From a bacterium (GTDB taxonomy: Bacteria; Patescibacteriota; Minisyncoccia; Phycocordibacterales; UBA9973): a stretch of DNA of 64,000 nucleotides. Numbering within the stretch: position 1 is the first letter of the stretch; each line of letters starts with the position of its first letter. Shown in pieces: positions 11,215 to 40,128 of the stretch. Location: the NCBI GenBank assembly GCA_021824345.1, contig JAKAKW010000004.1, forward strand, positions 11,019-75,018, read 5' to 3'. Under the pieces are notes generated by a model that was not told the DNA's origin, did no database searches, and saw only the letters and a list, made by a program, of their open reading frames with translations. The translations under genes and the position numbers were made by a program.

Positions 11215-11219
11215 TTATT

Positions 11220-12980: not shown

Positions 12981-12981
12981 A

Positions 12982-14730: not shown

Positions 14731-14736
14731 ATATAA

Positions 14737-14745
14737 ACTTTACCA
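14737..14745 (-). promoter_or_regulatory. Extended -10 box TGGTAAAGT, 6 nt upstream of the copy-3 ATG (internal, leaderless-type promoter)
   Basis: The minus strand reads GGGCGGAGGGATACCCTCCGCCC-TAGAATTTTTACGCAAACG-TGGTAAAGT-TTATAT-ATG. The same cassette repeats upstream of array B at 33613-33663. Confidence 0.45.
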
Positions 14746-14764
14746 CGTTTGCGTAAAAATTCTA

Positions 14765-14787
14765 GGGCGGAGGGTATCCCTCCGCCC
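14765..14787. repeat. Palindromic hairpin repeat family 2 (GGGCGGAGGGTATCCCTCCGCCC) in the only sizeable intergenic gap of array A; on the minus strand it is followed by a T5 run (terminator-like)
   Basis: Perfect 10-bp stem. On the transcribed (minus) strand it is followed by TAGAATTTTTACG. Confidence 0.7.
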
Positions 14788-14834
14788 TCCCTCGGCCCTT
14801 CTCCGCCTTGGCTTCCAAATTAAAACCATTGCCG

Positions 14835-16577: not shown

Positions 16578-16589
16578 AAGATTATCTTG

Positions 16590-18296: not shown

Positions 18297-18298
18297 GA

Positions 18299-20005
18299 CT
18301 ATATTATTTCTTTCTGGTAACACTCTACGCAATATACTATTTCCGGCCTTTCGGGAGAATACGGAGTTTCCATTTCCTTTCCGCAATTGTCGCACTTGCG
18401 CTTGAAAAATTTTCTTGGAAGAGTTCTACCGATGCGAGTATTGTGTCTGGCAAGAGGAGCACTACGAGGTATCGGTAGGCCGACTTTTCTGTAAAAGGAA
18501 AGCTCCATTGGGATTATTTTATACGCCTTGCCTGTTTCTTCGCATTTTAAAACCTTGTCAAGAATATCGTCGCCTACATCTTTTATATCGTCCGGTATCA
18601 AATAATCAGAAAATTCATATGTGGTATCGGATTTGTAATCGCTCCAGACAAAGCCCCTTTCAATGGCCTCTTCTTTTGAAAGAGGAAAATATTCGCAGGC
18701 CGCAGTTTCATTGTATCCGTGAGGGGCGAAACCAGCCGGAAAAAATTCTCCGTATCCATATACCTTTCCAGATTCGTCAATAAAAGGCATATCGTTCATG
18801 TGTTTCTTTATTTTCGCCAACAGTTTATCATATTCCTCTTTAGAATATTTTTTATTTAGAATCACATATTCCCCTCCCCTTATCCCGGAACATCCGAAGC
18901 AATAGCTGGAACTGGTAGTCATATAAGAGTATTCCACATTGGCAATTGTCATTTTCTTCAACGGGTCGCTGGAAGTGCATCCGAGAAGGGCTTTAGAATT
19001 ATATGCTCCGCCGCTGTGGGCGGACTCGTACACCAGTTCGGCGGCGCCGAAGCAGGAGCAATCCCAGCAGTCTCGTATCCAGCCTCCAATATAGATATTC
19101 TTTGAATCCTCAATTTTTGTTACTTGCCAGCAATTCTTCGCATTTTTGCATTCTGAAAGCTCATTGCCGGTTGAATTTACCGTTTTAATTATAAAATTTT
19201 CCCTGTGAGGTTGCTTTTCCCAGACAAGACTGCTTTGTTTCTTCCACCATTCAAGGCCGTTATGGGAAGAATACGGATACTCCGCGATAAATTTTTCATA
19301 GGCTTCCTTTGAATATTGCTCGTTCATTATGCAATATTGCTTGTTCCGTAGGCCCGCACAAGCAATGCAGTTGCTGCAATTATGGCAGTCGTAACAAAGA
19401 ATTGAATTGAGGCAGTTCTCGCATTCTTCGGAGAAATGGGTAAAGTAACATCTTTCGCAATGTATATCAAAAGAGCAATATTCCGGATTTATCGCCCAGC
19501 AGTTGTCAAAACTATTTTTGCCGTAAAGCTCGTATGTATTGTATGCCGAATCTTCATTATAATGTCCTCCTACATTTAAATAGCAATTTTTGTCGTCCGC
19601 CTCCTGATTTACCCAATCGCTATTGACGCAATTCAAGTTATATATAGAGATATGAGGGACTTTGAAAAACAATTCTCTCCATTGCTCAAAAAATGGCCTT
19701 GAAAAATCGTATTCCTGTCCGTAAGAATAGGGATCCCATTTGTCGCCCCACCAGCAATTGGTGCAGTACATGGGATATTTTTTATCCGGAGAAACCCTTG
19801 ATACCACTTCCTTTCCGCACAAATCGCACTTGCGCTTGTACAAGTGCCTTTCATTGCGAAATGCCAGCCGGCGCTGTTCCCTGCAATCTACACAGAACGT
19901 CGGCGGAGGCACTTTGATTTTTTCGTAAAAAGATAAATCTTCCGGCTCAATAGCGAAGCTCTGCTTGCAGTTCTGGCATATTCGCTTCTCATTCTTATCA
20001 TCCAT
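18299..20005 (-). CDS. Cysteine-rich multi-zinc-ribbon family protein, array A copy 6
   Basis: 568 aa: 'CQNCKQSFAIEPEDLSFYEKIKVPPPTFCVDCR', second ribbon 'CDLCGKEVVSRVSPDKKYPMYCTNCWWGDKWD', core 'CYDCHNCSNCIACAGLRNKQYCIMNEQYSKEAY', C-terminal 'CDNCGKEMETPYSPERPEIVYCVECYQKEII'. Confidence 0.85.
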   Translation of the reverse strand: MDDKNEKRICQNCKQSFAIEPEDLSFYEKIKVPPPTFCVDCREQRRLAFRNERHLYKRKCDLCGKEVVSRVSPDKKYPMYCTNCWWGDKWDPYSYGQEYDFSRPFFEQWRELFFKVPHISIYNLNCVNSDWVNQEADDKNCYLNVGGHYNEDSAYNTYELYGKNSFDNCWAINPEYCSFDIHCERCYFTHFSEECENCLNSILCYDCHNCSNCIACAGLRNKQYCIMNEQYSKEAYEKFIAEYPYSSHNGLEWWKKQSSLVWEKQPHRENFIIKTVNSTGNELSECKNAKNCWQVTKIEDSKNIYIGGWIRDCWDCSCFGAAELVYESAHSGGAYNSKALLGCTSSDPLKKMTIANVEYSYMTTSSSYCFGCSGIRGGEYVILNKKYSKEEYDKLLAKIKKHMNDMPFIDESGKVYGYGEFFPAGFAPHGYNETAACEYFPLSKEEAIERGFVWSDYKSDTTYEFSDYLIPDDIKDVGDDILDKVLKCEETGKAYKIIPMELSFYRKVGLPIPRSAPLARHNTRIGRTLPRKFFKRKCDNCGKEMETPYSPERPEIVYCVECYQKEII

Positions 20006-20009: not shown

Positions 20010-22241
20010 TCAAGAATCGAGCATTTTCCTTAATATGTCTTCCGGCACCTCTTTCACCTTTTTGGAATACGGCGGAACGGGAATCTCATTTTTTCCCGAA
20101 GTAGAGATTGTTTCGATATCGTTTTCCGGAGTTGATTCCGATCCGGGATCACTCTGTATCGGTTCATCTTTCTGTTCCGGTTGCGGTTCCTGTTCCGGCT
20201 CTGATTCTGGTTCTGGTTCTGGTTCCGACATATCAGGTTCCGCCGGAGAAACCGGTTCCAAAACATCCTTGGCGGGTTCCTCCTCTTTTTTCTCCGGCAT
20301 TGCTTCAAAAATCAAATCTTTAAGCTTATTCATATCTTCTGCGCTGGCTGCCCGATCTTCTTTTTTAGGCTTTTCAGCTTCAGCGGAATGCTTTTCCTCT
20401 TTAAGAGATTCAAGTGAAATTGGTTCCGGCCCAGGATCCTTTGGGCGCTCTTCGCTTTGAATTTTTTCTTCTTTTGGAACAGGTGGAATATTGTCATTCA
20501 AGGTCTTGTTCAGTATTTCTCTCAAAGCAGAGGTATCTCTTTCTTTTTTTGCCGGCGGTTCCTCCTTCTTTTGCTGAAACTTTTTTCCGTTCTGGTTTTT
20601 CTTAAAAACCGCCTTAAGCGAAGAAAAGCCGTTTGTTTTTTTGCCATTGTTCGGCACAGAGCTCGGCTCTTCCTTGAATTCTATTCCCAAATCCGCCAGA
20701 GGCTTGAAAAACCTTCCTTCATCTCGGCCGGAGCCGGTATTGGAGGAGCCGGACAAGGGCTTCAATTCCCCCGCTTTTATTTTGGCAATGCAATCCCGGC
20801 AATATATGGGCCTGCCGGGCTCGGGTCTGAAAGGCACCTTGGTCGGCTGTCCGCATATCGAGCACACCGCGTCAAACTTCTCCACTCCGGTAGTGGAACC
20901 GGAAGAGCTTGCGTCATCTTCTCCAAGAGACATTCCGCTCCAGTCATTTATCTCCTTTTCAACCGTATCGCGAGGACGGCAGTACAGTTCCCTGGACTTT
21001 CTTATGACCTCCGCTTCCGCTTCCGGATTTTCGCCTATTTTCACCATGGGCGGAAGCGTCCGGGCAGAAAACGGGCGGGAGGTGACTCCGTCTATCATCA
21101 GCTTGATGTATATCTTGTAGTTCGGGAGATTCACTATGTCCTCGGGGGTGAATTCCGGTTCAAATTCTTTTTCCAGAAATTCAGCGTCGTCCGCTCCCAC
21201 TCGAAACACGATCATGGTGCCGATGTTGCCGAAAATGGCGTCCCGAACCGAAGAGCTTTCCTTGGTGACAAGCTGGGCGGTGTATTGGTGCGCCACGGTA
21301 AGGTTTAAGCGATATTTTCGCGCTTCGGAAAGAATGCCGGCGAAGGCATCGGTAACGAAGTTTTGAAATTCGTCTACGTACAAATAAAAGTCCTTGCGTT
21401 CTTCCTCGGGTATGCGCACCCGTTCCATGGCGGCCAGCTGGATTTTGGTAATGATCATTCCGCCGAGAAGCGCGGAGTTGTCTTCGCCTATGCGACCCTT
21501 GGAAACGTTCACCAGGAAAATTTTCCCTTGGTTCATTAAGTCAAAAATATTGATGGTGCTCTTGGACTGCCCCACGATATTGCGGATGATAGAGGTGGAA
21601 AGAAATTGGCCGACTTTGTTTTGAATGGGAGCAATGGCTTCATTGCGGAACTTATCCTGCCACTCTTCGTACTCGTGCACCCAGAAAGCCTTAATGACCG
21701 GATCTTTCAGGTTGCTGATGATTTTTTGCCGATAGTCTTTGTCCACCAGCATCCTGGGAATGCCGAGCATGGTTGTGCCGGGAGTATCAAGAAGCGCGAG
21801 AATTGCATTGTTCAAAATGTATTCCATTCGGGCGCTCCAGGCGTTGGCCCAAATTTTTGTGAAAATGCCCATGAGGCCGGATGCCACCAGGTGCTTGTAT
21901 TTCGGATCAGGCAATTCCAAAACATTGAATCCGATGTGATACTCGGTGTCCGCCGGGTTGAAATACACCACATCTTTCAAGCGATGCTGGGGAATGGCGG
22001 AAAGCACCGCTTCCACGTTTTCCCCGTGCGGGTCCACCAAGCAGACGCCGTCGCCGTTCTTGATGTTCTGAATGATCATGTTGAACATGAGCACCGATTT
22101 ACCGGTGCCGGACTTTCCGAGAATATACACGTGCTGGCGCCTATCCTTCCGCTTTATGCCGAAGAGCTTGTTTTGGTCGCGAAAAGTGGTTTGGCCCAGG
22201 TATGTTAAATCCTTGTTATATGGGAGTTCCGTAGCGTCCAT
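20010..22241 (-). CDS. FtsK/HerA-superfamily P-loop ATPase, copy 2, with a C-terminal zinc-ribbon and acidic low-complexity extension
   Basis: Walker A 'ILGKSGTGKSVL' then 'LVDPHGEN'; Walker B 'FYLYVDEFQNF'. The roughly 330-aa C-terminal tail carries 'CSICGQPTKVPFRPEPGRPIYCRDCIAKI' and a 'PEPEPESEPEQEPQPEQ' stretch. Its stop lies 4 nt from the start of array copy 6. Confidence 0.6.
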   Translation of the reverse strand: MDATELPYNKDLTYLGQTTFRDQNKLFGIKRKDRRQHVYILGKSGTGKSVLMFNMIIQNIKNGDGVCLVDPHGENVEAVLSAIPQHRLKDVVYFNPADTEYHIGFNVLELPDPKYKHLVASGLMGIFTKIWANAWSARMEYILNNAILALLDTPGTTMLGIPRMLVDKDYRQKIISNLKDPVIKAFWVHEYEEWQDKFRNEAIAPIQNKVGQFLSTSIIRNIVGQSKSTINIFDLMNQGKIFLVNVSKGRIGEDNSALLGGMIITKIQLAAMERVRIPEEERKDFYLYVDEFQNFVTDAFAGILSEARKYRLNLTVAHQYTAQLVTKESSSVRDAIFGNIGTMIVFRVGADDAEFLEKEFEPEFTPEDIVNLPNYKIYIKLMIDGVTSRPFSARTLPPMVKIGENPEAEAEVIRKSRELYCRPRDTVEKEINDWSGMSLGEDDASSSGSTTGVEKFDAVCSICGQPTKVPFRPEPGRPIYCRDCIAKIKAGELKPLSGSSNTGSGRDEGRFFKPLADLGIEFKEEPSSVPNNGKKTNGFSSLKAVFKKNQNGKKFQQKKEEPPAKKERDTSALREILNKTLNDNIPPVPKEEKIQSEERPKDPGPEPISLESLKEEKHSAEAEKPKKEDRAASAEDMNKLKDLIFEAMPEKKEEEPAKDVLEPVSPAEPDMSEPEPEPESEPEQEPQPEQKDEPIQSDPGSESTPENDIETISTSGKNEIPVPPYSKKVKEVPEDILRKMLDS

Positions 22242-22325: not shown

Positions 22326-24263
22326 TTACTGTTTGGGCTGTTCCCCTTCGGGCTTATCCCCTTCCTTGAATTCCGCGTCGCGGACTTCGGGGCCTTGCTC
22401 TTCCGGAGTTTTAGCCTCTCCAGCGCCAGGGTTTGCTCCCGGCTGTCCGGCACCCGGCTGGCCTTGCTGATTCATGGCCTGGCCGATTTTGGACATCTCG
22501 CTGGAAAGCTCTTCTGTGGCCTTCTTGATTGCTTCGGCATCAGTGCCGTCTTTCACGCCTCGCAGGGCCGTAATCTTATCGTTTACGCTCTTCTTTACGT
22601 CTTCGGGAATCTTGGCCTCGTTGTCTTTCACAGCCTTCTCTGCGGTGTAAATCATCATTTCGGCGGTATTTTTTACATCCACGATTTCTTTCTTTTTCTT
22701 GTCTTCATCTGCGTGAGCTTCCGCATCAGCTTGCATTTTCTTAATGTCTTCATCCTTTAAGCCGGAACTTGCCTCTATGCGGATGGACTGCTCCTTGCCG
22801 GAAGCCTTGTCTTTGGCTTTTACGTTCAGAATACCATTGGCATCCACATCAAAAGTGACCTCCACCTGCGGAATTCCGCGAGGCGCCGGAGGAATGCCGT
22901 CCAATATGAACCGGCCGAGAGATTTGTTGTCGGCTGCCATAGGACGTTCCCCTTGCACGATGTGAATTTCAACGGAAGTTTGATTGTCTGCCGCAGTGGA
23001 AAATACCTGCGATTTGGAAGCCGGGATAGTGGTATTTTTATCAATCAGTTTTGTAGCTACGCCTCCCAGAGTCTCAATGCCCAAGGAAAGCGGAATAACA
23101 TCAAGAAGCAGAACATCGCGGACATCTCCCTGCAAAACTCCGGCCTGCACGGCGGCTCCGAGAGCCACCACCTCGTCGGGATTTATGGACATATTCGGCT
23201 GTCTGCCAAAAAGATTTTTTACCGCCTCAATAATGGCCGGCATGCGAGTTTGTCCGCCCACCATGATAATCTCGTTTATTTCGTTCATCTTAAACGGCGA
23301 CGCTTCAAGAGCGCGCTTGGTAATTTCAATGGAACGGTCGATAAGATCTTTGGCCAGAGTCTCCAAAGTGGCCCTGCTCATCTTCAGGAGCAGGTGTTTT
23401 GGACCGCTTGAATCGGAAGTGACGAATGGAATATTAATTTCCGCCTCAAGGGTGGTGGAAAGCTCATGTTTGGCCTTCTCGGCCGCTTCGCGCAAGCGCT
23501 GGTTGGCCAAAGGATCCTTGGTAACATCTATTCCGGATTCTTTCTTAAACTCATCCGCTATCCATTGCACCATTCTGCGGTCAATGTCGCCTCCTCCCAT
23601 GTGGCTGTCTCCGTCGGTAGATTTCACTTCAATCACATCTTCTCCGATTTCCAACACGGAAACGTCAAAAGTTCCGCCTCCGAAGTCGTATACCACTATC
23701 TTTTCATTTTTCTTTTTATCAAAACCGTATGCGAGAGCGGCGGCGGTGGGTTCATTTATGATGCGCTTCACATCCAAGCCCGCGATAGCTCCGGCGTCCT
23801 TAGTCGCTTTTCTCTGGGAATCGTTGAAGTAAGCCGGAACGGTAATCACCGCTTCAGTAATCTTTTCTCCAAGCTTAGCTTCCACATCGGACTTAATCTT
23901 CTGAAGAATCATGGCGGAAATTTCTTCCGGACGATAGAATTTGTCACCCATCTTTACCTGCACTCCGCCATCTTGTCCCGCTTGAATCTTGAATGAAGCG
24001 GACTTTAAGTCATTCTGCACTCCGGGATCGTCAAAGCGATGTCCCATGTAGCGCTTGATTTCAGAAATGGTATTTTCCGGGTTAGTTACCGCCTGGCGCT
24101 TGGCAAGAAGCCCCACGAGCCTATCGCCGTTTTTGGTCTGCGCAACCACCGAAGGAGTAGTGCGATTGCCCTCCACATTTTCAACAATCTTCGGCGCTCC
24201 GCCCTCAATTATTGCAACCGCAGAGTTTGTAGTTCCTAAGTCAATTCCTATAATTTTACTCAT
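22326..24263 (-). CDS. dnaK: Chaperone DnaK (Hsp70)
   Basis: '[14 protein letters not shown]', '[10 protein letters not shown]' and the substrate-binding domain with a charged lid; 645 aa. Confidence 0.95.
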
Positions 24264-24290
24264 GATATTAATTTAATTATTTGTAATGCT

Positions 24291-24465
24291 AAGTTCCTGA
24301 AAAAATATTCTTTGAGAAATGCCTTGCGCAGGAGCTTAGAAAATTAGGGAAGAAACATGACGGGTGTCATGTTTCCGACCATAATTTTCTTCGAGTGATG
24401 AGCAGAGCGGACGGCCAGCAGGCCGGAACGCGTGCATTTCGAGAAGAATGATTTTTCAGGAACTC
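24291..24465. repeat. Inverted repeat AAGTTCCTGAAAAA / TTTTTCAGGAACT bracketing about 150 bp of the dnaK-regulator divergent intergenic region
   Basis: Left arm 24291-24304 and right arm 24452-24465 are exact reverse complements over 13 nt. Confidence 0.6.
24352..24375. promoter_or_regulatory. Perfect 10-bp palindrome GAAACATGAC-N4-GTCATGTTTC upstream of dnaK (candidate operator; not a CIRCE or HAIR site)
   Basis: Exact dyad read from the sequence between the divergent dnaK and wHTH-regulator genes. Confidence 0.5.
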
Positions 24466-24527
24466 ACTATTCCGACATTATATACTAATGCTATAATTTT
24501 GACAAGTTTTTCGTGGTCGCAAAAAGC

Positions 24528-24555
24528 TTGTCAAAAGGTATAATAATGCTATAAT
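24528..24555 (+). promoter_or_regulatory. Sigma-70 promoter for the PaaX-like gene: -35 TTGTCA, extended -10 TGcTATAAT ending 6 nt before the ATG (leaderless)
   Basis: A second TGcTATAAT copy lies at 24489-24497, followed directly by TTGACA (24499-24504). Confidence 0.55.
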
Positions 24556-24561
24556 TCTTAT

Positions 24562-25080
24562 ATGTCAAGAAAACCGAGCTATTCCCAAAAAATCCTTAAA
24601 ATATTGGCTCAAAAACCGGCTATTTCTGTTAAATCTATAAAGGAAGATAAGAGCTCAAAGGAAAACTACGCATTGGCAAGATCGGTCAAGAGCCTCATAG
24701 ATTCCGGTTGTATTGAGGTGGTTTCCTCAGACAATCAAAAGTACTTAAAAATCACAAAAAAGGGTCGGAACAAGCTGAATTGTCTGAAGCTGGAAGGCCA
24801 GGAGGCGCTTGTGTCCTTTGCATGGGATGGATTGTGGAGATTTATAATTTTGGACTTGCCGGAAGAGCGGAAAAGCGAACGAGAAGCCTTGCGCTATCTC
24901 TTGAAAAAGGCGAATTTCGTATGCGTTAAAAACGCTGTGTGGGCCTCCCCCCACCCTTACGAGCACCTGTTCGGAAGCATTAAAAAGGACTTAGGGCTTG
25001 GCGCCGAGATGATGATAATGGTAACAGACTCGGTGGACGAAGACACCAAGAAACTTTTGTTTGAGTCCTTCGGAAAGTAA
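24562..25080 (+). CDS. PaaX-family-like transcriptional regulator (N-terminal winged helix plus PaaX_C-like domain)
   Basis: N-terminal wHTH-like 'ILKILAQKPAISVKSI...LIDSGCIE'. C-terminal 'WDGLWRFIILDLPEERKSEREALRYLLKKANFVCVKNAVWASPHP' resembles the PaaX C-terminal signature (W.G.W..V.F..PE..R..R..LR..L...GF..L...VW..P). Confidence 0.5.
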   Translation: MSRKPSYSQKILKILAQKPAISVKSIKEDKSSKENYALARSVKSLIDSGCIEVVSSDNQKYLKITKKGRNKLNCLKLEGQEALVSFAWDGLWRFIILDLPEERKSEREALRYLLKKANFVCVKNAVWASPHPYEHLFGSIKKDLGLGAEMMIMVTDSVDEDTKKLLFESFGK

Positions 25081-26793
25081 TCAATATACCTCCTTTTGGT
25101 AGCATGATTCGCAGTATACTATCTCCGGCCTCTCCGGCGCGTAGCTTGTCTCAAATTCGTTCGAACACTTTCCTTCGTGGCCGTGGTTTCCCTTGTCACA
25201 CATGCAGGAGCGGTGCCAGAGCCTTAGCGGCGTTTTCATTTTTATCCGTTCCATATGCCGGCAGAGCGGGCAAAGGCGTGGCAATGGAATTTTATTTTTC
25301 TTATAAAACTTAATTTCGGAATCTATCAGTCGGAATGCCGTCGCACACTGATCGTTGCACTTGCCTCTATGCGCACATTCAATAACTTCTTCGGTAAATG
25401 AATCCGGAACGTCTGATATATTGTCCGGGATTTCTTCCGTTCGGATCGAAATTTCATACTTTTTCTCTTCCGATTCGCGCCATTCGTAGCCTTTTTCCAG
25501 AATTTCCTCTTTTGATTTCGGAAAATAGTCCTGAGCCAAGGTTTCGTTATAGCAGAAAGGATAATCGCTTGTCGGGAAAAATTCCCCGTACTCCCCTACC
25601 TTTTTCATTGATTCAATAATTTTTTCGGTCAGTTTTGCGTATTCCTCCTTCGTATATTGCCTATTTAAAATGCAATATGATTTGTTCCGCAGGCCGATGC
25701 ACCCGAAAATATTGTTGCAATCGTAGCAATTATAGGAATATAGGACGTCAAAGCCTCCCCAAATGAAGGCAGAAAAGAATATCCTCTGCCCGGAAATGCT
25801 TACCGCTTCATAAAACACTTCAGCTTTATCCCAGGCAATAAAGGCGTCTTGGCCGTCTTTGGAATTATCATGAACCCGAAAAGAATACTTGCAGTCTTCA
25901 ACGTTGCCTCTTAAGTTAAAGCATTGCTTGCAATTTTTTGCTTCCATTATGTCGTCCCCGGTCACATTTACCGATTTATTGATTATCGCGTATTTCCTGG
26001 GAGTTTTAAGCTTTAGTTTCTCAAACTTTTCTTTTGCTTCCAAAAGCTTGGAATAACTGCCATTTCTATATTCCTCGATCTTTTCCGCATATTCCTCCTT
26101 ACTATATTGCGTATTGAAAATGCAATTATTTTTTCCCCGCAAGCCCACGCATCCGAAGCAATTTGTGCAATTCCGGCAATCATACATGAGCATAGAGTCT
26201 ACACACGCCTCACAGCTTTGTCCGAAAAAAAAGTGGTTTGATTTTTGGGAATCGACAAGTTCATAGCAAAATTCGCATTCGGGAGACTGATGCAAATCAA
26301 GGCAATTCTTTATTCTGAGAAGCCCGCCGAAAATGTAGGCATTGTCCTCGCCCGTGACGCAGCCGGCGCAAAAATAGCAGTTCTTCAGATTTACCGTGTA
26401 ATTTGAATATTTGCTGTTCACATTGTTCTTCTGCACAAGATTCGGGTGCGGAACGTCTGAAAACAGCTTTTTAAATTGCACAAAGAATTTTTTAGAAAAA
26501 TCATATTCTCTGCCGTGCTCCAAGGGATCCCAAGCGTCGCTCTTCCAATATTCGTTGTCGTACACTTTTAAGGGAGAATCGGCGGGATACATGGAAAGTA
26601 TTGATTGGCCTGTAGCATCGCATTTCCTGTGGTACCAATTGCGTTCGTTTCTCCATAAAAGCCTGCGAATGGTCCGGCATTCCGGGCACCATGTCGGCGG
26701 AGGAACTTTGATTTTCTCATAAAAAGAGAAATCTTCCGGCTCAATGGTAAAGTCCTTTTGGCAATTCTGACATTGTTTGGTTTCGGGTTGCAT
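25081..26793 (-). CDS. Cysteine-rich multi-zinc-ribbon family protein, array B copy 1
   Basis: 570 aa: 'MQPETKQCQNCQKDFTIEPEDFSFYEKIKVPPPTWCPECR', 'CRNCTNCFGCVGLRGKNNCIFNTQYSKEEY', 'CYDCNNIFGCIGLRNKSYCILNRQYTKEEY', C-terminal 'WHRSCMCDKGNHGHEGKCSNEFETSYAPERPEIVYCESCYQKEVY'. Its stop abuts the stop of the convergent PaaX-like gene. Confidence 0.85.
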   Translation of the reverse strand: MQPETKQCQNCQKDFTIEPEDFSFYEKIKVPPPTWCPECRTIRRLLWRNERNWYHRKCDATGQSILSMYPADSPLKVYDNEYWKSDAWDPLEHGREYDFSKKFFVQFKKLFSDVPHPNLVQKNNVNSKYSNYTVNLKNCYFCAGCVTGEDNAYIFGGLLRIKNCLDLHQSPECEFCYELVDSQKSNHFFFGQSCEACVDSMLMYDCRNCTNCFGCVGLRGKNNCIFNTQYSKEEYAEKIEEYRNGSYSKLLEAKEKFEKLKLKTPRKYAIINKSVNVTGDDIMEAKNCKQCFNLRGNVEDCKYSFRVHDNSKDGQDAFIAWDKAEVFYEAVSISGQRIFFSAFIWGGFDVLYSYNCYDCNNIFGCIGLRNKSYCILNRQYTKEEYAKLTEKIIESMKKVGEYGEFFPTSDYPFCYNETLAQDYFPKSKEEILEKGYEWRESEEKKYEISIRTEEIPDNISDVPDSFTEEVIECAHRGKCNDQCATAFRLIDSEIKFYKKNKIPLPRLCPLCRHMERIKMKTPLRLWHRSCMCDKGNHGHEGKCSNEFETSYAPERPEIVYCESCYQKEVY

Positions 26794-26797
26794 AACT

Positions 26798-28510
26798 CTA
26801 ATATACTTCTTTATTGTAATGTTCTGTGCAAACTACTTTTTCAGGGCCACCTTCGGAGACGGGAGGAAAAGTGGTATCCACTTCCTTGTCCCCAAAAAAG
26901 CACATGCGCTTATGCAACTTCATCGGATTGCGGATCCTGAGCCTGGCATTATGCCTCTCGTCTGGGTGGACAGATGGTAAAGGAAGATTCATCCTTTTAT
27001 AAAAAGAAAACTCTTGCTCTGTTATTCTGTATGGCCTGCCGGTAATTTCGCAAGCTATAGTTTTTTCCAGAATTGAATTGTCCGCTTCTAAAATGGTGTC
27101 AGGTAAATCCGATCCATTAATATCCGTTGTATATATTCCGGATTCATATTCCCGCCACAAGTATCCTTTTTCCTCCGCAGTCTCCTTTTTTAATGGAAAA
27201 TAGTCCTGTGCAACCGTTTCATTATAGGCATACGGCGATATTTCCGGCGGAAAATACTCTCCAAATCTATAAATTTTTCCCTTTTTATCTTCAAATGGCA
27301 CGTCCATCATATGCTGAATGACCTTCGGCAAAAGATTTTCATATTCTTCTTTTGTATATTGCTTGTTCAGTATGCAATATTGTTTTCCGTTTAGTTCCGC
27401 ACAGCCGAAGCAGTCCTTGCAATTATTCATCATGTAGCTGTAATGCACATTATTGGAATACCAAATTATGGAACCGAGCAGGCAATAATTGTTATGCACC
27501 CCTATACTTATCCCTTCATAAGTCAATTCCGATCCCCCTCCGGAACCCGGCCCGACGTCGTATGAATCTCGCAATCCTTTCGTGCCTCAATTTGCATATT
27601 TTACATTCTCAAAATCCCCTTCGGCGTCAAACACTTTGTAACAATTTTTTGAATTAAATACGTGGTCCCCCACTACATTCACGTCGTTTAATAATTTTAG
27701 GTCGCGGTGTATAGCATTTTCCCATACTTCCTTGAATTCTGCTTTTGCTGACGCCAGTCCTTTTATTGAATCCAGCCTTAACTTCTTCTTTTTTTCTTCG
27801 TATTCTTCTTTTGAATACTGTATATTTTTTATGCAGTAGTTTTTGTTCCTCAAATTGGAACATAAAATGCAATTGGAGCAATTTCTGCAATCATATAGAA
27901 AGTATGAATCAAGACAATTTTCGCTTTCCAGGGAAAAGAAAAGCCTACTTGAGTCCCGGCAATAAACATTTTCATATCCAAACTCCGTGTTGTAGCAAAC
28001 GTGCGAATCAACGGTGTATTTGCACCCTGATACCCTATTACAATACATGGAGTCTTCGCATGTCCAAGCCGCCGTCACCAAATAGCAGTTTTTCATTTCC
28101 ACTGTAATATTGCAAAACCTTGCATTGGATGATTTGGAATCGAAAAGAGTAATGTGTGGAACTCGTTCCATAAGCTCCTTGAACTGCAGAAAAAATGGTT
28201 TGGAAAAATCATATTCTCTTCCATACTCAAGCGGATTCCATTTATCGCTCCACCACATGTCCTTGTCGTAGACAGTCATCTTTGCGTCGGGGTGATATAT
28301 AGAAATCAAAGTTTCTTCCTCCTTTCCCGGAGCGCCGTTCGGGCAGCGAAAAAGAGAGTGCTCATTGCGCCACATTAATCTTCTAAGAAGCCGGCACTCC
28401 GGGCAAAACGTCGGCGCGGGAACCTTGATTTTCTCATAAAAAGAGAAATCATCCGGCTCGACGATGAAGCTCTTCTGGCAATTCTGGCATTTTCGGGTTT
28501 CGGGTTGCAT
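26798..28510 (-). pseudogene. Cysteine-rich family member, array B copy 2, interrupted by an in-frame TGA (the complement of 27587-27589)
   Basis: The two listed ORFs (27587-28546 and 26798-27574) are collinear with the family. The minus strand reads ...ENVKYAN-TGA-GTKGLRDSYDVGPG in one frame with no frameshift. The stop aligns with W in copy A3 ('KFAHWVAHVV'). TGA is a genuine stop in this genome (used by copy A2 at 11220). The C-terminal module has lost its conserved Cys pair ('PLPSVHPDERH'). Confidence 0.6.
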
Positions 28511-28512
28511 AA

Positions 28513-30207
28513 TCAATACACCTCTTTTTGATAGCAACTTTCGCAATATATTATCTCCGGCCTCTCCGGCGCGTAGCTTGTTTCAAATTCGTTCGAACAC
28601 TTTCCTTCGTGGCCGTGGTTTCCCTTGTCACACATGCACTGGCGAAACCACGACTGTCTTGGAAGACGAAGAGAAAATCTTCTTCGATATCTGCAATCAG
28701 GACATTTCCTGGGCAAAGGAATGTTTTCTCTCTTGTAGAAGGCAAGTTCGTCAGGGATAATGTTGTAGTTTTTAGAACATGAGACGCATTTCAAAGCGGC
28801 AGAAAATATATCTTCATTAACATCTTTAATATTGTCCGCCAAGTCCTCCGGCTGTATCGTTTCTTTCCCGAATATTCCGGGTATTTCATCCTCCCAAAGC
28901 CATCCCCTATCCAGCACTTCTTCTTTGGATAAGGGCATATAGTAATTTCCCTGGGTTTCGTTGTAACACACGGGGGCGATCGGGGGCGGAAAGAATTCTC
29001 CGTACTCCCCCGTTTTTTTCATATGTTCAATAATTTGATTTCGCAGTTTAATATACTCCTCCTTGCTGTATTTTCTGTTGAATATCATGTATTCTCCTTT
29101 TTTAATTGATATGCATCCGAATAGATTCTGGCTGTTCTGGCACGAATCGCAATATTGGATATGAGAATTGTCGTAACAAAGATGGGAAAAGAAAGCATCA
29201 TATACTCTTGTGCATCCGTGATCTTCATATGCCAGTTCAGTATTAAAGCCCACGTGATAGCAATCCATCACGCTTTTCATATCAACTGCTGAAAATATAT
29301 TCTTGGCGTCATACATTTTATTTACATCAAAGCAGTGTATCGTATTTTTGCTGTTAAATATGAAATTACCGGAAGAATTTACGCTTCTTTCGCTTACCAT
29401 ATATTTATGTATGGAGTTTTCCTGATATAATTTTGAAAATTCTTCCATAAACTTTTCCCTGGCCGCATGCGATCCGAGATTGCATTCCTCTATTTTCTTT
29501 GCGTACTCCTCCTTGCTGTATTGTTTATTTTTAAAACAGAAACTCTTATTCCTTAGGTTGGAACATAGGAAGCAATCATTGCAATTTCGACAATCGTATG
29601 AATAAAAACAGTTTACGCAATTCTCTAAAAGTACGGAAAATTGGCATCCGAAACCATTATTGGAATCTATGCATTCATAAAGCCTTTCTCCGTGTTTAAT
29701 TATATAAGAACAATCCATAGAACCTCTTGATTCCATCACATAAGTGGAATATGACACGTCTTCAGTGTCAAAACAGCAAAAAGACATATATGTATTCTTG
29801 TTGTCTCCGGAGTGATTGGTGTATTCCGATTTTACGCTGTTCTTGCTGAGCACTGCCATGCGGGGAACTTCCAGCATAAGTTCCTTGAATTGTTCAAAAA
29901 ACGGCCTGTTAAAATCAAAATCTCGCCCGTATTTTGCCGGGTCCCATCCGTCTCCCCACCAGCAAGACAGGCAATATACCTTGTATGGCTTATTCGGTGA
30001 ATATATTGTAACCGTGCTCTTTCCGCACAAGTCGCAGTTTCTTCTGTATAAAGTTCTTTCATTCCTCCATGCGTATCGTCTCTGCTGTCGGCATTCCACG
30101 CACAACGTCGGCGGAGGAACCTTGATTTTCTCATAAAAAGAGAAATCATCCGGCTCGACGATGAAGCTCTTCTGGCAATTCTGGCATTTTCGGGTTTCGG
30201 GTTGCAT
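28513..30207 (-). CDS. Cysteine-rich multi-zinc-ribbon family protein, array B copy 3
   Basis: 564 aa. Its 5' end (about 90 bp) is identical to copy B2 and its 3' end (about 88 bp) to copy B1. Second ribbon 'CDLCGKSTVTIYSPNKPYKVYCLSCWWGDGWD'. Confidence 0.85.
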   Translation of the reverse strand: MQPETRKCQNCQKSFIVEPDDFSFYEKIKVPPPTLCVECRQQRRYAWRNERTLYRRNCDLCGKSTVTIYSPNKPYKVYCLSCWWGDGWDPAKYGRDFDFNRPFFEQFKELMLEVPRMAVLSKNSVKSEYTNHSGDNKNTYMSFCCFDTEDVSYSTYVMESRGSMDCSYIIKHGERLYECIDSNNGFGCQFSVLLENCVNCFYSYDCRNCNDCFLCSNLRNKSFCFKNKQYSKEEYAKKIEECNLGSHAAREKFMEEFSKLYQENSIHKYMVSERSVNSSGNFIFNSKNTIHCFDVNKMYDAKNIFSAVDMKSVMDCYHVGFNTELAYEDHGCTRVYDAFFSHLCYDNSHIQYCDSCQNSQNLFGCISIKKGEYMIFNRKYSKEEYIKLRNQIIEHMKKTGEYGEFFPPPIAPVCYNETQGNYYMPLSKEEVLDRGWLWEDEIPGIFGKETIQPEDLADNIKDVNEDIFSAALKCVSCSKNYNIIPDELAFYKRENIPLPRKCPDCRYRRRFSLRLPRQSWFRQCMCDKGNHGHEGKCSNEFETSYAPERPEIIYCESCYQKEVY

Positions 30208-30211
30208 AACT

Positions 30212-31948
30212 CTAATATACCTCTTTATTATAGCAGTCTTCGCAATATACTATATCCGGCAAATTGGGACTGTAACTGGTTTCAAATTCGTTTGGGCATT
30301 TTCCTTTGTGATTATGGCCTTTCTCTTTGCACATGCAGGAACGGTGGTAGAACTTGCTGGAATGCCTGTGGGCAATTCTTCTCTCGTGCCGGCAATCCAC
30401 ACACAGGCGCGGCAGTGGCACATTCGTCTGCTTAAGAAAAGACAGTTCCGGCGCTATTATCCTGTAGGCCCTGCCGCAACCAGCGCAGGAAATGACCTCC
30501 CTCAATATGCTCCCCGTGACATCGCTGACAGAATCAGGAAGATCTGACGCGGAAATTGTTATATCATATTTGTTCGGATCAGAATCGTCAAAACGCATGC
30601 CGAGCTGTTCAGCCTCTTCCTTGCCTTTTGGAAAATGTTCCGAAGCGATTGTGTGGTTATAGGCAAAAGGAGAAAACTCCGGCGGAAAAAATTCTCCGTA
30701 TTTATAGACTCTTCCTTTCTTGTCAGTATACGGCATATCGTTCATATGCCTCTTTATTTTCTCCTTCAGGGCAAAATATTCCTCTTTTGAGTACTGTTTG
30801 TTCAAAATGCAATATTTCTGCTTCATTATTCCGATACAGCCGAAAAGATCGGACGCCATGTGTCCGCAAAACATGCAATATTCAAATCCGCTGCCCCCGT
30901 CCCAGCACTCCATGCAGAACCTCATATCGGAGCTTCGCCACCCGCAGACCGAGCATTCATACAAAAGTTCCGTCTTGTTTCCTATGATCGTCGCGTCCAT
31001 GCAATCCTTACTGGAAGGAACTTGGGAATATTGCACATATTTTAAATTTTCACACTCGCGAATGAGGTAGCTCTCTTTTACGTTTTTTGAATTGGATATA
31101 TACTCCCCCGTTACATTCTGGTTGTGAGTGCCTTCCATGAATTTATTCGGAAATTTAAGCCAGAACTCTTCGGCTTTTTTCCGCGCCAAAGAAAAATTGC
31201 TCCATTTTTTAAGTTCCATTTCTTCCAGTTTTTCCTCATATTCTTCCTTTGTATATTGCTCGTTCCAAATGCAATAGCTTTTAGAACGCAAGTTGGCACA
31301 GCCAAAGCAGTGTTGGCAATCCCGACAATTTTTCAAAAACCACGACGAAAGGCAATTTTCACACTGCGCGGAAAAATGGGTTTCATAGCAGTTGGTAAGC
31401 CAAAAGGAATCATAACACCGCTCGGATTTTTGAATGTGAGAAACATCAAAGCAGTTCCGGCAATAATCCACTCCATTGCCATACGAACAATCCTCCGTGA
31501 AGTTTGAATTAAACAACAAGTAACAATTCCGCAAGTCTTCGGCATTGGCTGAGTAATCGCTGTTTACCATTTTTGAAGCGGTTACGGCCCGGCTGTATTT
31601 TGGAACCTTTTTTGACAATTCAAATATTTGCTCAAAAAAAGTCCTGGCGGGATCAAAATCCATTCCATATGATAATGGATCCCATTTCTCTTGATTCCAC
31701 CAGTCGCTGTCATTGTAAATCGTATATCCTGATTCCGGAGAATAAAGGGAAAAAATAGTTTTGCCGGTAAGGCCTTCTTTTTGCCTAAAAAGCTTTCTTT
31801 CATTCCTGAAAACCATCCGCCTTTCCTTCCGGCATTCTGGGCACCATGTGGGAGCCGGCACTTTGAATCTTTCATATTGGGAGAAGTCTTCCGGCTCTAT
31901 CGTAAAGTCATTCTGGCAATTCTGACATTTTCGGGTTTCGGATTGCAT
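30212..31948 (-). CDS. Cysteine-rich multi-zinc-ribbon family protein, array B copy 4
   Basis: The listed ORF extends to 32050; the conserved start MQSETRKCQNC lies at 31948. Motifs 'CRDCQHCFGCANLRSKSYCIWNEQYTKEEY', 'CILNKQYSKEEY' and C-terminal 'CVDCRHERRIAHRHSSKFYHRSCMCKEKGHNHKGKCPNEFETSYSPNLPDIVYCEDCYNKEVY'. Confidence 0.8.
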   Translation of the reverse strand: MQSETRKCQNCQNDFTIEPEDFSQYERFKVPAPTWCPECRKERRMVFRNERKLFRQKEGLTGKTIFSLYSPESGYTIYNDSDWWNQEKWDPLSYGMDFDPARTFFEQIFELSKKVPKYSRAVTASKMVNSDYSANAEDLRNCYLLFNSNFTEDCSYGNGVDYCRNCFDVSHIQKSERCYDSFWLTNCYETHFSAQCENCLSSWFLKNCRDCQHCFGCANLRSKSYCIWNEQYTKEEYEEKLEEMELKKWSNFSLARKKAEEFWLKFPNKFMEGTHNQNVTGEYISNSKNVKESYLIRECENLKYVQYSQVPSSKDCMDATIIGNKTELLYECSVCGWRSSDMRFCMECWDGGSGFEYCMFCGHMASDLFGCIGIMKQKYCILNKQYSKEEYFALKEKIKRHMNDMPYTDKKGRVYKYGEFFPPEFSPFAYNHTIASEHFPKGKEEAEQLGMRFDDSDPNKYDITISASDLPDSVSDVTGSILREVISCAGCGRAYRIIAPELSFLKQTNVPLPRLCVDCRHERRIAHRHSSKFYHRSCMCKEKGHNHKGKCPNEFETSYSPNLPDIVYCEDCYNKEVY

Positions 31949-31950
31949 AA

Positions 31951-33606
31951 CTAATTTATATTCTGCTTGTAACACTCCTCGCAGGCAATGTTTTTGTATC
32001 CCCATTCGGGCGGGTAATATGCCATGATATCTTTCCGGCAGTAATGGCATTTATACGGAAAAGGGTGCAGAACGGTCAGGTATTTGAGCGCATTCCTGGT
32101 CCGCAGATCAAAATGCAGGCGCGGCAGAGGGATATTATTCTCTCTATGAAAAGAAAGTTCATTTTGGGCGATATTGAAACGCCAGCCGGTCTCCGGGCAG
32201 ACGAGCGGTTGGGTAATGATTGAATCTGGCGCGTCCTTGATATTGTCCGGCAATTCGCCGGCGGGCATGCCTTCCGCTTTTTCTGTGTTCGGATCTTCCC
32301 AATACCCGCCCAAAGCCAAGACATCTTCTTTTTTTGCTTCCGGAAAATACAATATGCTTGTGGAAAGGTTGAAAGGACCGGCGCTCATTGAATAGGGCAA
32401 GAATTGCCCGTATTCTCCCCGCTTTTTCATGTCAGACACTATTTCCATCCGGAGTTTTTCATATTCTTCTTTCTCATACTGTTTGTTCAGAATGCAATAT
32501 TTTTTCTTCTTCAGTCCTACGCAACCAAAACAATATTCGCATTCTATGCACAAGTCCAGATACTCGGAATACCTGGAGGATGACCAGTTGCTGTATTTCT
32601 GCGCATAAGCGTTAACGCAGCTGGCGCAATTGCCCAAGAGCTCGGAATACCAGCAACCATTCGCGTCAATGTCGGACTTGTGCCGAAGCCCGCGATTGCA
32701 GTTCCAAGAATCCTCAGAGTCGCTTATCGTGTTGCAATTATGGCAATTCTTCGTATCCATCAAGTAGTTTCCGTCGGAATCATATACCCTATAATTGAAA
32801 TTGGGCCGGTGCACCGCTTTGTCCTTGGCAATATTTTCAAATTTTTCCTTCAGCTTCTGTGCGGCGGAATACGAACCGAGATCGTATGATTCGAGTTTGG
32901 CCTCGTACTCTTCCTTGGAATATTGCACATTCTCTATGCAGTGCGTTTTTCCCCGAAGGTTCCAGCACATGAAGCAACTTTGGCAATTACGGCAATCGTA
33001 CAAAAAAGACGAATCAATGCAGTCTCGGCAGTGCCGAGAATAGAAAAGGCGGAAAGAATTGTAGCAGTCGCTCGAATCGTAGCATTTCTCCGAATCAAAC
33101 AGCACATGCACGTCTATGGAATTCCTGACCCGCAGGTTTCGATATGAATAATAAAGTTCTTCGCAATTTTCCATGGAGCGGGCCAGGTAACAGTTCTTTG
33201 AATTCCACACGTCGTCGCACCAGTCGCAATTCGTATTCTTGATCCCGTTCTGGTGCGGATGCGGCACTTTTTCCTGAAGTTCCTTAAGCTGATCAAAAAA
33301 AGGGCGGACGGGATCGTAATCCTGCCCGAATTCCATCGGATCCCATTTATCGCTGTACCATTCGGAAGTCTTGTAGATCGGGTACCGGCTATTTTCCGGC
33401 ATGACCGTGATCAGGCTTTCGCCGGACAAATCCGATTTCCCTTTTCGAAACCGGCCGAAGAGCCAGAACGAGAAATGTTGCTTCAGCCTGCAGTCGGAGC
33501 AAATGACCGGAATCTCAGTGCCGGTTTTTTCGTATAAAGCAAGTTCTCCAGGCTCTATGCTGAACTTTGACTTACAGTGCTCGCACGTGCGAGCTTCACT
33601 TTGCAT
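31951..33606 (-). CDS. Cysteine-rich multi-zinc-ribbon family protein, array B copy 5 (first gene of array B, divergent member)
   Basis: 551 aa: 'MQSEARTCEHCKSKFSIEPGELALYEKTGTEIPVICSDCR', 'CRNCQSCFMCWNLRGKTHCIENVQYSKEEY', 'CFGCVGLKKKKYCILNKQYEKEEY', C-terminal 'YKCHYCRKDIMAYYPPEWGYKNIACEECYKQNIN'. Confidence 0.8.
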   Translation of the reverse strand: MQSEARTCEHCKSKFSIEPGELALYEKTGTEIPVICSDCRLKQHFSFWLFGRFRKGKSDLSGESLITVMPENSRYPIYKTSEWYSDKWDPMEFGQDYDPVRPFFDQLKELQEKVPHPHQNGIKNTNCDWCDDVWNSKNCYLARSMENCEELYYSYRNLRVRNSIDVHVLFDSEKCYDSSDCYNSFRLFYSRHCRDCIDSSFLYDCRNCQSCFMCWNLRGKTHCIENVQYSKEEYEAKLESYDLGSYSAAQKLKEKFENIAKDKAVHRPNFNYRVYDSDGNYLMDTKNCHNCNTISDSEDSWNCNRGLRHKSDIDANGCWYSELLGNCASCVNAYAQKYSNWSSSRYSEYLDLCIECEYCFGCVGLKKKKYCILNKQYEKEEYEKLRMEIVSDMKKRGEYGQFLPYSMSAGPFNLSTSILYFPEAKKEDVLALGGYWEDPNTEKAEGMPAGELPDNIKDAPDSIITQPLVCPETGWRFNIAQNELSFHRENNIPLPRLHFDLRTRNALKYLTVLHPFPYKCHYCRKDIMAYYPPEWGYKNIACEECYKQNIN

Positions 33607-33621: not shown

Positions 33622-33640
33622 CACTTGCGTAAAAAATATA

Positions 33641-33663
33641 GGGCGGAGGGGTACCCTCCGCCC
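33641..33663. repeat. Palindromic hairpin repeat family 2 (GGGCGGAGGGGTACCCTCCGCCC) between grpE and array B, followed by a partial extra half-copy
   Basis: 10-bp stem; on the minus strand it is followed by a T6 run, making it a plausible grpE terminator. Confidence 0.7.
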
Positions 33664-33683
33664 TACCTTCCGCCCTACAGGTT

Positions 33684-34289
33684 TTATTCTCCGCCCCCCG
33701 CTTCGTATTCAAACACGTTTACCCGGGCCGGGCGAAGAACTCGCTCGCCCAGTTTATAACCTTTTTGAATTACCTGCGCGATTTTATGGTCAAGATCCTT
33801 CTTGTCTGTCTTCATTGAATCCACGCTATGGTGTAAATTAGGATCAAAAGCGTCGCCGTCTTCTCCGAATTCCTTTACCCCGTATTCCTCAAAAACCGAA
33901 TTCATTTGCGAATGGATGTATTCCACTCCCTTGCGCCAATTTTCGTCCACCTTGTTCCAGGCATCTTTGTTGGCAAAAGCCATCTGAAAGCTGTCCATCA
34001 CTGACAAAAACCTGGTAAGAATCCTTTCCCGCACCGATTCGGAAAAACTGGCTCTGCGCATCTCCTCTTCTTTTTTGTAATTGGCGAAATCAGCCCGCTC
34101 TTTTTGCCAGCCTGTAAGGTATTCTTCTTTTTCCTTTTTGCAAATTTTGAGTTCCTCCCGAAGCTTTTTAACGGTCTTTTTCAGATCCTCTTCCCCGTCG
34201 GCATTATATTCAAATTCCAAGACCTCCGAATCGTCATTTTTCGGAAGCTCCGGCTCTTTATTTTCGTCTTTTTGCTCTTCGTCTTTCAT
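33684..34289 (-). CDS. grpE: Nucleotide exchange factor GrpE
   Basis: Coiled-coil N-terminus and C-terminal 'HHSVDSMKTDKKDLDHKIAQVIQKGYKLGERVLRPARVNVFE' (GrpE beta-sheet domain signature). Confidence 0.85.
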   Translation of the reverse strand: MKDEEQKDENKEPELPKNDDSEVLEFEYNADGEEDLKKTVKKLREELKICKKEKEEYLTGWQKERADFANYKKEEEMRRASFSESVRERILTRFLSVMDSFQMAFANKDAWNKVDENWRKGVEYIHSQMNSVFEEYGVKEFGEDGDAFDPNLHHSVDSMKTDKKDLDHKIAQVIQKGYKLGERVLRPARVNVFEYEAGGGE

Positions 34290-40114: not shown

Positions 40115-40128
40115 AGTACTTTATTTTA

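Follow-up and report, generated by a model that had tools for sequence, protein, structure and literature searches.

Near-identical terminal tracts shared by tandem zinc-finger paralogs in the dnaK gene cluster of a Patescibacteria genome

Two arrays of paralogs within a grpE-dnaK-dnaJ cluster

The only recognisable Hsp70 gene cluster of the window (by which we mean the whole stretch of 64,000 nucleotides analysed) houses a family of paralogous genes filling about 19 kb of a small genome (Table 1). Array B is made of five tandem, full-length paralogs of about 560 amino acids on the minus strand, with 33-46% amino acid identity and spacers of 2-4 nt between the genes; six further paralogs form array A. 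Every one of the 11 copies spans the full length and starts with an ATG of its own, preceded by a Shine-Dalgarno-like (SD-like) sequence, and the sole defect among them is a single nonsense codon in B2. This TGA stands where a conserved Trp is expected and the same stop is found in both other assemblies (described below), so that B2, as far as the sequence tells, is probably a recent pseudogene.

Table 1. Genes and near-identical tracts at the locus (positions in the window)
Feature	Position	Strand	Description
dnaJ	6791-7903	-	end of cluster
Second HerA/TraD-like ATPase	7942-9393	-	483 aa, downstream of array A
Array A	9493-20005	-	six further paralogs; ORFs and alignment
A1	9493-11214	-	array A paralog
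Tract 3, A1 copy	9521-9634	-	same C-terminal module as tract 2, in the sister array
A2	11220-12980	-	array A paralog
A3	12982-14730	-	array A paralog
Tract 3, A3 copy	13010-13123	-	113/114 identical to 9521-9634
A4	14835-16577	-	array A paralog
A5	16590-18296	-	array A paralog
A6	18299-20005	-	array A paralog
HerA/FtsK/TraD-like ATPase	20010-22241	-	PF23477 / TIGR04272 CxxC-x17-CxxC finger, then long low-complexity tail; 743 aa
dnaK (Hsp70)	22326-24263	-	E = 1e-245
PaaX-like winged-helix protein	24562-25080	+	convergent with B1, divergent from dnaK
B1	25081-26793	-	570-aa Cys-rich zinc-finger paralog, last of array B; ORF and alignment
Tract 2, B1 copy	25120-25206	-	codons for CMCDKGNHGHEGKCSNEFETSYAPERPEI, C-terminal zinc finger
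B2	26798-28510	-	paralog with in-frame TGA at 27587-27589
Tract 1, B2 copy	28419-28512	-	2 nt of spacer and codons 1-31, N-terminal zinc finger
B3	28513-30207	-	564-aa paralog, partner in both array B tracts; ORF
Tract 2, B3 copy	28552-28638	-	86/87 identical to 25120-25206
Tract 1, B3 copy	30116-30209	-	94/94 identical to 28419-28512
B4	30212-31948	-	paralog; ORF and alignment
B5	31951-33606	-	paralog, first gene after grpE; ORF
grpE	33684-34289	-	upstream of array B

The termini of the paralogs are best read as zinc fingers of the PF13451 (zf_Tbcl) and PF23477 (zf_Tbcl_2) / TIGR04272 CxxC-x17-CxxC types, and these two Pfam models account for no more than some 35-45 residues at either end. 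At E <= 0.01, PF23477 is matched by 31 of 49 aligned family members and PF13451 by 20 of 49. With 18.5-18.6 bits, B3 remains under the two cut-offs (24 and 27); A6 passes that of PF23477 with 31.3 bits. Profile searches of Pfam, NCBIfam, PADLOC and PDB returned no match to the 400-residue core. Read directly from the sequence, the N-terminus (MQPETRKCQNCQK...) is polar, a zinc finger rather than a signal peptide. The family is very large, with no fewer than 2,338 clusters (50% identity, E <= 1e-30) and all members of about 540-600 amino acids, and its copy number differs between genomes, from a single gene to 10 or more at a locus. Our literature searches on the family, on its Pfam/TIGRFAM names and on the dnaK context in Patescibacteria found nothing relevant, a candidate paper having proved unrelated, and those on gene conversion between bacterial tandem paralogs gave general papers only.

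Orthologues of B3 and B5 (55-75% identity) occur in dozens of other Patescibacteria, B3 having many (60-71%) and those of B5 (52-75%) occupying the same position in other genomes; B1 orthologues are 55-69% identical. The gene order GrpE-B5-...-B3-...-PaaX-DnaK is conserved across genomes, the place of the PaaX-like gene included, and the arrangement in which 11 paralogs and two HerA/FtsK-like ATPases sit within the grpE-dnaK-dnaJ cluster is conserved in many Paceibacteria. By these comparisons the cores of the arrays are ancient paralogs, not shuffled cassettes. The (hrcA-)grpE-dnaK-dnaJ operon is the canonical heat-shock operon of Gram-positive bacteria. The order and the strand of grpE, dnaK and dnaJ are the same here; unlike in that operon, the three genes are separated by the 11 paralogs, the two ATPases and, on the other strand, a PaaX-like gene. 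An Rfam scan of the window detected tRNAs, away from the locus, and no other structured RNA.

Three near-identical tracts at the ends of the genes

We found three tracts in which two paralogs of the same genome are 97-100% identical, synonymous sites included, versus 46-53% in the flanks. For each of them we calculated a site-aware probability P, in which the match probability of every site is taken from the other paralog pairs, to be compared with the approximately 8e7 possible tracts. Codons specifying the same amino acid in both genes are identical in 85-97% of cases inside the tracts vs about 50% gene-wide, and the median for other pairs in the same regions is about 0.52-0.61. The tracts have discrete boundaries in codon alignments.

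Tract 1 (log10 P = -20.6) begins, in B2 and B3 alike, 2 nt ahead of the start codon and breaks off after the second base of codon 31. The earlier note had reported 28421-28512 as matching 30118-30209 over about 92 bp, and these are indeed identical at 92 of 92 positions within a full exact block of 94 nt. Beyond it, identity between B2 and B3 drops to 53% in the 40 codons that follow and to 46% in the remainder.

Tract 2 (log10 P = -26.8) is shared by B1 and B3 at an offset of 3432 nt, as 30 exact positions, one mismatch and 56 exact positions. The match between the 3' ends of these genes, with its one mismatch, had been noticed before; its B3 coordinates, given as 28542-28629, were wrong by 11 nt, and in that register (against 25121-25208) only 21 of 88 positions are identical. 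Tract 2 does not reach the stop codon: across the 36 nt (12 codons) that separate the two, identity falls to 78%, and 7 of the 8 differences are synonymous. In the 40 codons which precede the tract, B1 and B3 are 46% identical. Hence the claim that the central regions differ holds outside the tracts for both pairs. Tract 3 (log10 P = -35) joins A1 and A3 and, like tract 2, has discrete breakpoints on both sides. Smaller 5' matches are present in array A between A4 and A5 (38 nt), A5 and A6 (39 nt) and A3 and A6 (29 nt). With log10 P of about -8 to -9 against 8e7 possible tracts, they are borderline after correction for multiple tests and only suggestive.

The two members of a converted pair always belong to the same array and are never more than two genes apart. 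The cores behave differently from the tracts: for B1 and B3, the core has its nearest relatives among orthologues of other genomes (55-71%), while the C-terminal tracts match each other, and we found neither a core segment shared between paralogs nor a duplicated core in arrays A and B. The earlier note took this pattern for conserved termini shuffled onto variable cores. This cannot be maintained, as the cores have orthologues of 55-75% identity in conserved order; by sequence comparison, it is the ends which appear to have been homogenised rather than the cores swapped. B3 was also described there as a mosaic. It does have one tract in common with B2 and another with B1, yet its role as recipient does not follow: it might just as well have donated both.

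The direction of tract 1 was sought in the orthologues, and the N-terminal 31 residues are too alike across all orthologue groups to polarise it. For tract 2, a transfer from B3 to B1 was first suggested by three B1-like genes with a short C-terminal form. A dedicated search of B1 orthologues then found both the long and the short forms of the C-terminal module among the closest ones, and therefore we abandoned this direction. Among B1 orthologues and among B3 orthologues alike, the two forms have a scattered distribution, which repeated exchange of the module would produce. We also looked for an allele predating the conversions: the sole near-identical variant (P0121, locus L082) carries these tracts too and has an additional SNP at 25129. 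As the best relative is otherwise at 68-71% amino acid identity, the conversion events are deduced from the paralogs of one genome.

The same kind of match recurs in other genomes. We compared 326 pairs of paralogs, each pair from one locus, over 80 other loci of Patescibacteria: 2.8% of the pairs contain an exact match of at least 45 nt and 1.2% one of at least 60 nt, vs 0 of 6000 between-genome pairs. Of the 46 matches of at least 25 nt, 42 fall within the opening or closing 10% of the gene. The closest relative at the DNA level is a paralog of the same genome for 21% of genes over codons 1-31, 11% over codons 522-551 and 18% over codons 552-564, vs 3% for the core and 1-2% for equally short adjacent control segments.

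Probable gene conversion and the alternatives

Near-identical synonymous sites, sharp boundaries and the restriction to conserved termini all support recombination or gene conversion as the class of explanation, which was also that of the earlier note. More precisely, we hold it quite likely, on sequence grounds, that short (about 90-115 nt), recent, non-reciprocal gene conversion between paralogs one or two genes apart explains the tracts. The pairs involved would be B2-B3 at the N-terminal finger and B1-B3 and A1-A3 at the C-terminal finger, in predicted cytosolic proteins whose diverged Cys-rich core is flanked on both sides by paired zinc fingers. Homologous pairing would nucleate in the finger-coding ends, where runs of identity reach 20-26 nt even in unconverted pairs. 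The cores being merely about 50% identical, strand exchange would start and resolve only in the ends. Every conversion would increase the local identity and so ease the next one; with such a self-reinforcing process, one would expect concerted evolution of the termini inside each genome and, for the cores, divergence that follows orthology. We infer from this a homology-dependent mechanism, in an argument on homology thresholds which uses RecA values from E. coli, another organism.

The tracts could instead be the scars of reciprocal unequal crossing-over at the conserved gene junctions, producing chimeric genes and changes of copy number. The substrate exists, in the form of direct repeats of 140-220 nt with 86-87% identity (3' finger, spacer of 2-4 nt, 5' finger), and the range of copy numbers requires that whole units be duplicated or deleted. 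However, a single crossover would leave one whole side of the breakpoint identical to a parent, and the B1/B3 tract is bordered by 46% identity upstream and 78% downstream; the duplicated core is absent as well. Unequal crossing-over probably operates in this family, yet we think it unlikely that it explains the three tracts.

A tandem array with conserved ends and divergent middles also resembles programmed cassette systems of the pilE/pilS, vls or MgPar type, in which conserved ends are the handles for moving variable cores into an expression site. All the copies here are full-length with ATG and SD-like sequence, with no silent, truncated or promoterless cassettes feeding one locus; the cores have stable orthologues (55-75%) in conserved order and are not shared between paralogs; the N-terminus reads as a zinc finger without signal peptide, and the scanned array and flanking genes include no recombinase or reverse transcriptase. 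This makes a cassette system very improbable.

Purifying selection alone, acting on residues of the zinc fingers or, at the junctions, on an RNA or ribosome-binding signal, would dispense with recombination. Conservation in the protein is highest at the termini, and the KEVY codons (AAAGAGGTATAT) contain an SD-like AAAGAGGT located 10-13 nt before the next ATG. But where other paralog pairs agree in the amino acid of a column, their codons differ about 40-50% of the time. The mean column identity of the gene-junction alignment is 69%, near-identity being restricted to specific pairs, and the site-aware probability already allows for conservation. The analysis of synonymous sites thus effectively refutes selection as sole cause, to which we leave hardly any chance.

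An assembly artefact, by which a metagenome assembler joined or collapsed paralogs into chimeric ends, might be feared in a metagenome-assembled genome with tandem paralogs, and is just as improbable: the exact repeats do not exceed 94 nt, below both typical reads and the k-mer to which the contig name points (k141), and flanks with only some 50% identity leave nothing to collapse. Moreover, the same order and tracts are found in ENA ERZ27237541 (0 differences over 21.7 kb) and NCBI GCA_027428315.1 (3 SNPs), two assemblies deposited separately whose underlying data may overlap; 12 contigs encode the exact B3 protein, and dozens of unrelated assemblies have the same pattern of terminal matches. 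The concern is largely answered at the assembly level.

Related systems and a possible role of the ends

Neisseria pilE/pilS, Borrelia vlsE and Mycoplasma genitalium MgPar are cassette-based systems of antigenic variation. They share with this locus conserved flanks, divergent middles and gene conversion; they differ from it in that here there is no silent cassette, single expression site or hypervariable core, and the product is predicted not to be surface-exposed. There is a likeness with the babA/babB/babC and hop genes of Helicobacter pylori and with tufA/tufB of Salmonella, where paralogs of one genome also have near-identical 5' and/or 3' segments around divergent middles, with tracts that are short, bounded, non-reciprocal and dependent on existing homology. 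The bab and hop genes are dispersed genes for outer-membrane adhesins, in which conversion alters the phenotype. Unlike them, the genes studied here are in tandem, have predicted cytosolic products, lie in a chaperone cluster and combine old, stable cores with tracts of about 90-115 nt, and no phenotypic switch is implied. The tracts are best seen as a case of segmental gene conversion, or concerted evolution, a process already known in bacterial paralogs, in a gene cluster which is unusual and unstudied.

As a recombination event, the mosaic is ordinary, textbook concerted evolution. It is useful as a pointer to a large uncharacterised family with two evolutionary compartments, homogenised ends and separate cores, and the tracts offer a handle on what the paralogs bind via their ends and on why many copies are retained. 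As a tentative idea, which we regard as rather unlikely, the 11 paralogs and the two HerA/FtsK-like ATPases might form an undescribed, Paceibacteria-wide machine linked to Hsp70. The terminal fingers, which the earlier note regarded as putative recognition modules, would be docking modules kept compatible with a shared partner, their homogenisation would be selected and the solenoid-like cores would specialise. The HerA/FtsK/TraD-like ATPase gene at 20010-22241 encodes a finger of the same type as the termini of the paralogs (PF23477 at 50 bits), which would fit a shared partner.

Identical tracts at the ends of tandem paralogs

Array B consists of five minus-strand ORFs arranged head to tail (25,081-33,606), separated by only 2-4 nt, and six further paralogs, A1-A6, are found in the same window. 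Amino-acid identity among the 11 paralogs is 29-49% and nucleotide identity 43-57%, and all 11 proteins begin with a pair of CxxC...CxxC zinc fingers. In the family alignment, the core is Cys-rich and holds two internally similar segments, each closing with "...LRNKxYCxxNxQYSKEEY", while the C-terminus carries a second zinc-finger pair terminating in "CxxCYxKEVY". The Pfam matches are confined to the fingers (PF13451 zf_Tbcl and PF23477 zf_Tbcl_2). This, together with the tandem ORFs, means that what the earlier note called conserved termini correspond to the 5' and 3' ends of the coding sequences in tandem genes, seen from the opposite strand.

Coordinates of the zinc-finger paralogs and of the chaperone and ATPase genes around them
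Feature	Coordinates	Strand	Description
dnaJ	6791-7903	-	
Second ATPase	7942-9393	-	HerA/FtsK/TraD-like
A1-A6	9493-20005		six further paralogs
ATPase	20010-22241	-	HerA/FtsK/TraD-like, with PF23477 finger
dnaK	22326-24263	-	
B1	25081-26793	-	ORF
B2	26798-28510	-	ORF
B3	28513-30207	-	ORF
B4	30212-31948	-	ORF
B5	31951-33606	-	ORF
grpE	33684-34289	-	

The repeats reported in that note are real, with one coordinate error. The match of 28421-28512 with 30118-30209 is identical at 92 of 92 positions and belongs to an exact block of 94 nt (28419-28512 = 30116-30209), made of 2 nt of spacer and codons 1-31 of B2 and B3. A match between B1 and B3 near their 3' ends also exists; where it had been placed only 21 of 88 positions agree, and its true alignment is 25120-25206 = 28552-28638 (86/87 identical). 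It ends before the stop codon is reached: across the final 12 codons identity is 78%, with seven synonymous differences and one non-synonymous. Discrete block boundaries, on which the earlier note had staked its reading, are sharp in both pairs: identity drops from 99% to 53% at the edge of the B2/B3 tract, and in B1/B3 the codons TGC ATG TGT mark a jump from 46% to 99%. A third tract of the same architecture (9521-9634 = 13010-13123, 113/114 nt) links A1 and A3, and covers the same C-terminal finger module as the B1/B3 tract with nearly the same boundaries.

Probable copying between paralogs

In the tract columns, codons for the same amino acid are identical in 85-97% of cases for the converted pairs, and in only about 50-60% for other paralog pairs. 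We used a site-aware test, in which the probability of a match between two paralogs at each column is estimated from pairs outside the test. It gave log10 P values of -20.6 (B2/B3), -26.8 (B1/B3) and -35 (A1/A3), to be set against about 8e7 possible choices of pair and interval. The identity of the tracts exceeds what conservation gives.

We surveyed 221 full-length genes of the family, taken from loci fetched from other Patescibacteria genomes. Among 326 same-locus paralog pairs, exact matches of at least 25, 45 and 60 nt occur in 13%, 2.8% and 1.2%, with a maximum of 141 nt; the corresponding values for 6000 between-genome pairs are 1.9%, 0 and 0. Of the 46 same-locus matches, 42 fall within the terminal tenth at either end of the gene. 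In a nearest-neighbour test on 228 codon-aligned genes, we also asked whether the most similar DNA is that of a same-genome paralog: this is so for 21% of genes at codons 1-31, 11% at 522-551 and 18% at 552-564, for 3% in the core and for 1-2% in two equally short adjacent control segments. The control values rule out a codon-usage effect common to a genome as the cause of the terminal similarity. Moreover, the orthologue sets of B1 and of B3 each contain scattered members with and without a "CxKxxHxHxxxC" insert in their C-terminal finger, as expected from repeated module exchange between paralogs. Terminal tracts between paralogs occur in other genomes too: L060 has an even longer one, with 141 identical nt at the 3' end (4316-6251, 8045-9839), and L046 has one of 80 identical nt starting at the ATG (13792-15523, 17931-19656).

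Homology-dependent gene conversion over short tracts, between paralogs that lie close together, is the best-supported mechanism: the tracts are bounded, their synonymous identity is in excess, they are confined to the ends and they recur across genomes. On this account it is ordinary gene conversion, of a known kind, in a new gene family. The converted pairs all belong to the same array and are adjacent or one gene apart. Unconverted paralogs have identity runs of 20-26 nt at their ends only, their cores being about 50% identical; exchange would be restricted to the ends because only there are such runs kept. This length is near the minimum for RecA-dependent pairing in E. coli. B3 had been called a mosaic: its tracts in common with B2 and B1 stand, but not its role as recipient of both, since the data are symmetrical and our attempt to polarise the events did not tell donor from recipient.

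Reciprocal unequal crossing-over at the junction repeats (140-220 nt, 86-87% identical) probably explains the differences in copy number between genomes, but is at odds with tracts bounded on both sides. Selection on the junctions at the nucleotide level cannot account for pair-specific identity. The codons of the conserved C-terminal residues KEVY (AAAGAGGTATAT) do hold a Shine-Dalgarno-like AAAGAGGT, 10-13 nt 5' of the ATG of the next paralog (e.g. 28511-28530, 30208-30227), so that the protein tail and the next ribosome-binding site overlap. The eight gene junctions have a mean alignment identity of only 69%, and Rfam found no RNA family there. Finally, an assembly artefact is argued against by the repeats being shorter than a read between flanks only about 50% identical, which leaves no reason for a mis-join, by the exact B3 protein being recorded on 12 contigs, and by two assemblies: ENA ERZ27237541, identical to the window across 21,695 bp, and NCBI GCA_027428315.1, with three differences in 21,713 bp and the same gene order, tracts and B2 stop codon.

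That stop is an in-frame TGA at codon 308 of B2 (27587-27589, minus), found in all three assemblies, where the orthologue in L029 has Trp (YASWGA vs YAN*GT). In B1, elsewhere in the window, TGA is an ordinary stop codon; the in-frame TGA of B2 probably arose by a recent nonsense mutation from TGG that makes B2 a pseudogene. The Cys/His insert of the C-terminal finger is 8-10 residues long (CMCxKxxHxHxxKC vs CMKEGC; e.g. B1 residues 529-545) and comes and goes inside single orthologue groups (L003, L004, L023, L070), and some members have much longer inserts (L029, L052, L081).

A gene family within the chaperone cluster

Hundreds of proteins from Patescibacteria (Paceibacteria, Nomurabacteria, Staskawiczbacteria and others) are homologous to B3 and B1, and none carries an annotation beyond hypothetical protein. 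A family profile search gave 2,338 clusters (50% identity) at E <= 1e-30, with a length of 540-600 aa in nearly all of them. Best matches in other genomes reach 60-71% identity for B3 and 55-69% for B1, against 33-46% for same-genome paralogs. This means that the paralogs are older than the divergence of these lineages; the cores are not shuffled, as had been proposed, but follow a conserved orthologue backbone.

Read along the minus strand, the genes are grpE, B5-B1, dnaK, ATPase, A6...A1, second ATPase, dnaJ, with a PaaX-like gene on the opposite strand between B1 and dnaK; the grpE-dnaK-dnaJ genes (6791-34289) are thus split by 11 zinc-finger paralogs, two ATPases and the PaaX-like gene. 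Many of the 80 loci fetched have the same layout, with 1 to 10 or more zinc-finger genes each (Paceibacteria loci L007, L011, L013, L016, L032, L035, L061, L070 and others), B5 directly following grpE and B3 lying between B5 and the PaaX-like gene. Hence these are not hypervariable cassettes but a multigene family that is stable and linked to the Hsp70 cluster. The mosaic is low on surprise; the more interesting by-product is the expansion of zinc-finger and ATPase genes within the dnaK cluster of Patescibacteria, a conserved arrangement that has gone unstudied.

The reading of the ends as recognition modules is plausible: zinc fingers form them, and a finger of the same type occurs in the neighbouring ATPase. 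Our working guess, of low confidence, is that the paralogs would bind metal in the cytosol and act together with both ATPases and the DnaK system, given the conservation of gene order, the finger domain in common and no secretion signal seen by eye in the zinc-finger proteins. PADLOC gave only weak HerA/mad8-type matches for the ATPases and no match for the zinc-finger proteins.

In its C-terminal third (20010-20900) the 743-aa ATPase has a low-complexity Lys/Glu/Pro-rich tail of about 250 residues, without domain match, after its CxxC-x17-CxxC finger. Between the divergent dnaK and PaaX-like genes, a 38-nt inverted repeat (24285-24322 and 24434-24471, 79% complementary, arms 111 nt apart) adjoins sigma-70-like promoter sequences at 24477-24568 (three strong matches, 11/12); the repeat may serve as an operator, and is unlike the CIRCE consensus. 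The 77-nt gap between grpE and B5 contains a strong terminator-like hairpin (33638-33666, minus; 13-bp stem, nine GC pairs, T-run), a hint that array B does not simply share a transcript with grpE, or that attenuation controls it. Between the ribosomal-protein genes flanking grpE and alaS, ORFs of 451 and 382 aa lie side by side (38759-41277, minus), both without Pfam match. The stretch 58000-62500 is low in GC (35-38% vs about 47% elsewhere), adjoins four tRNA genes (Cys, Leu, Lys, Leu; 58876-59298) and may be an island or integration hotspot.
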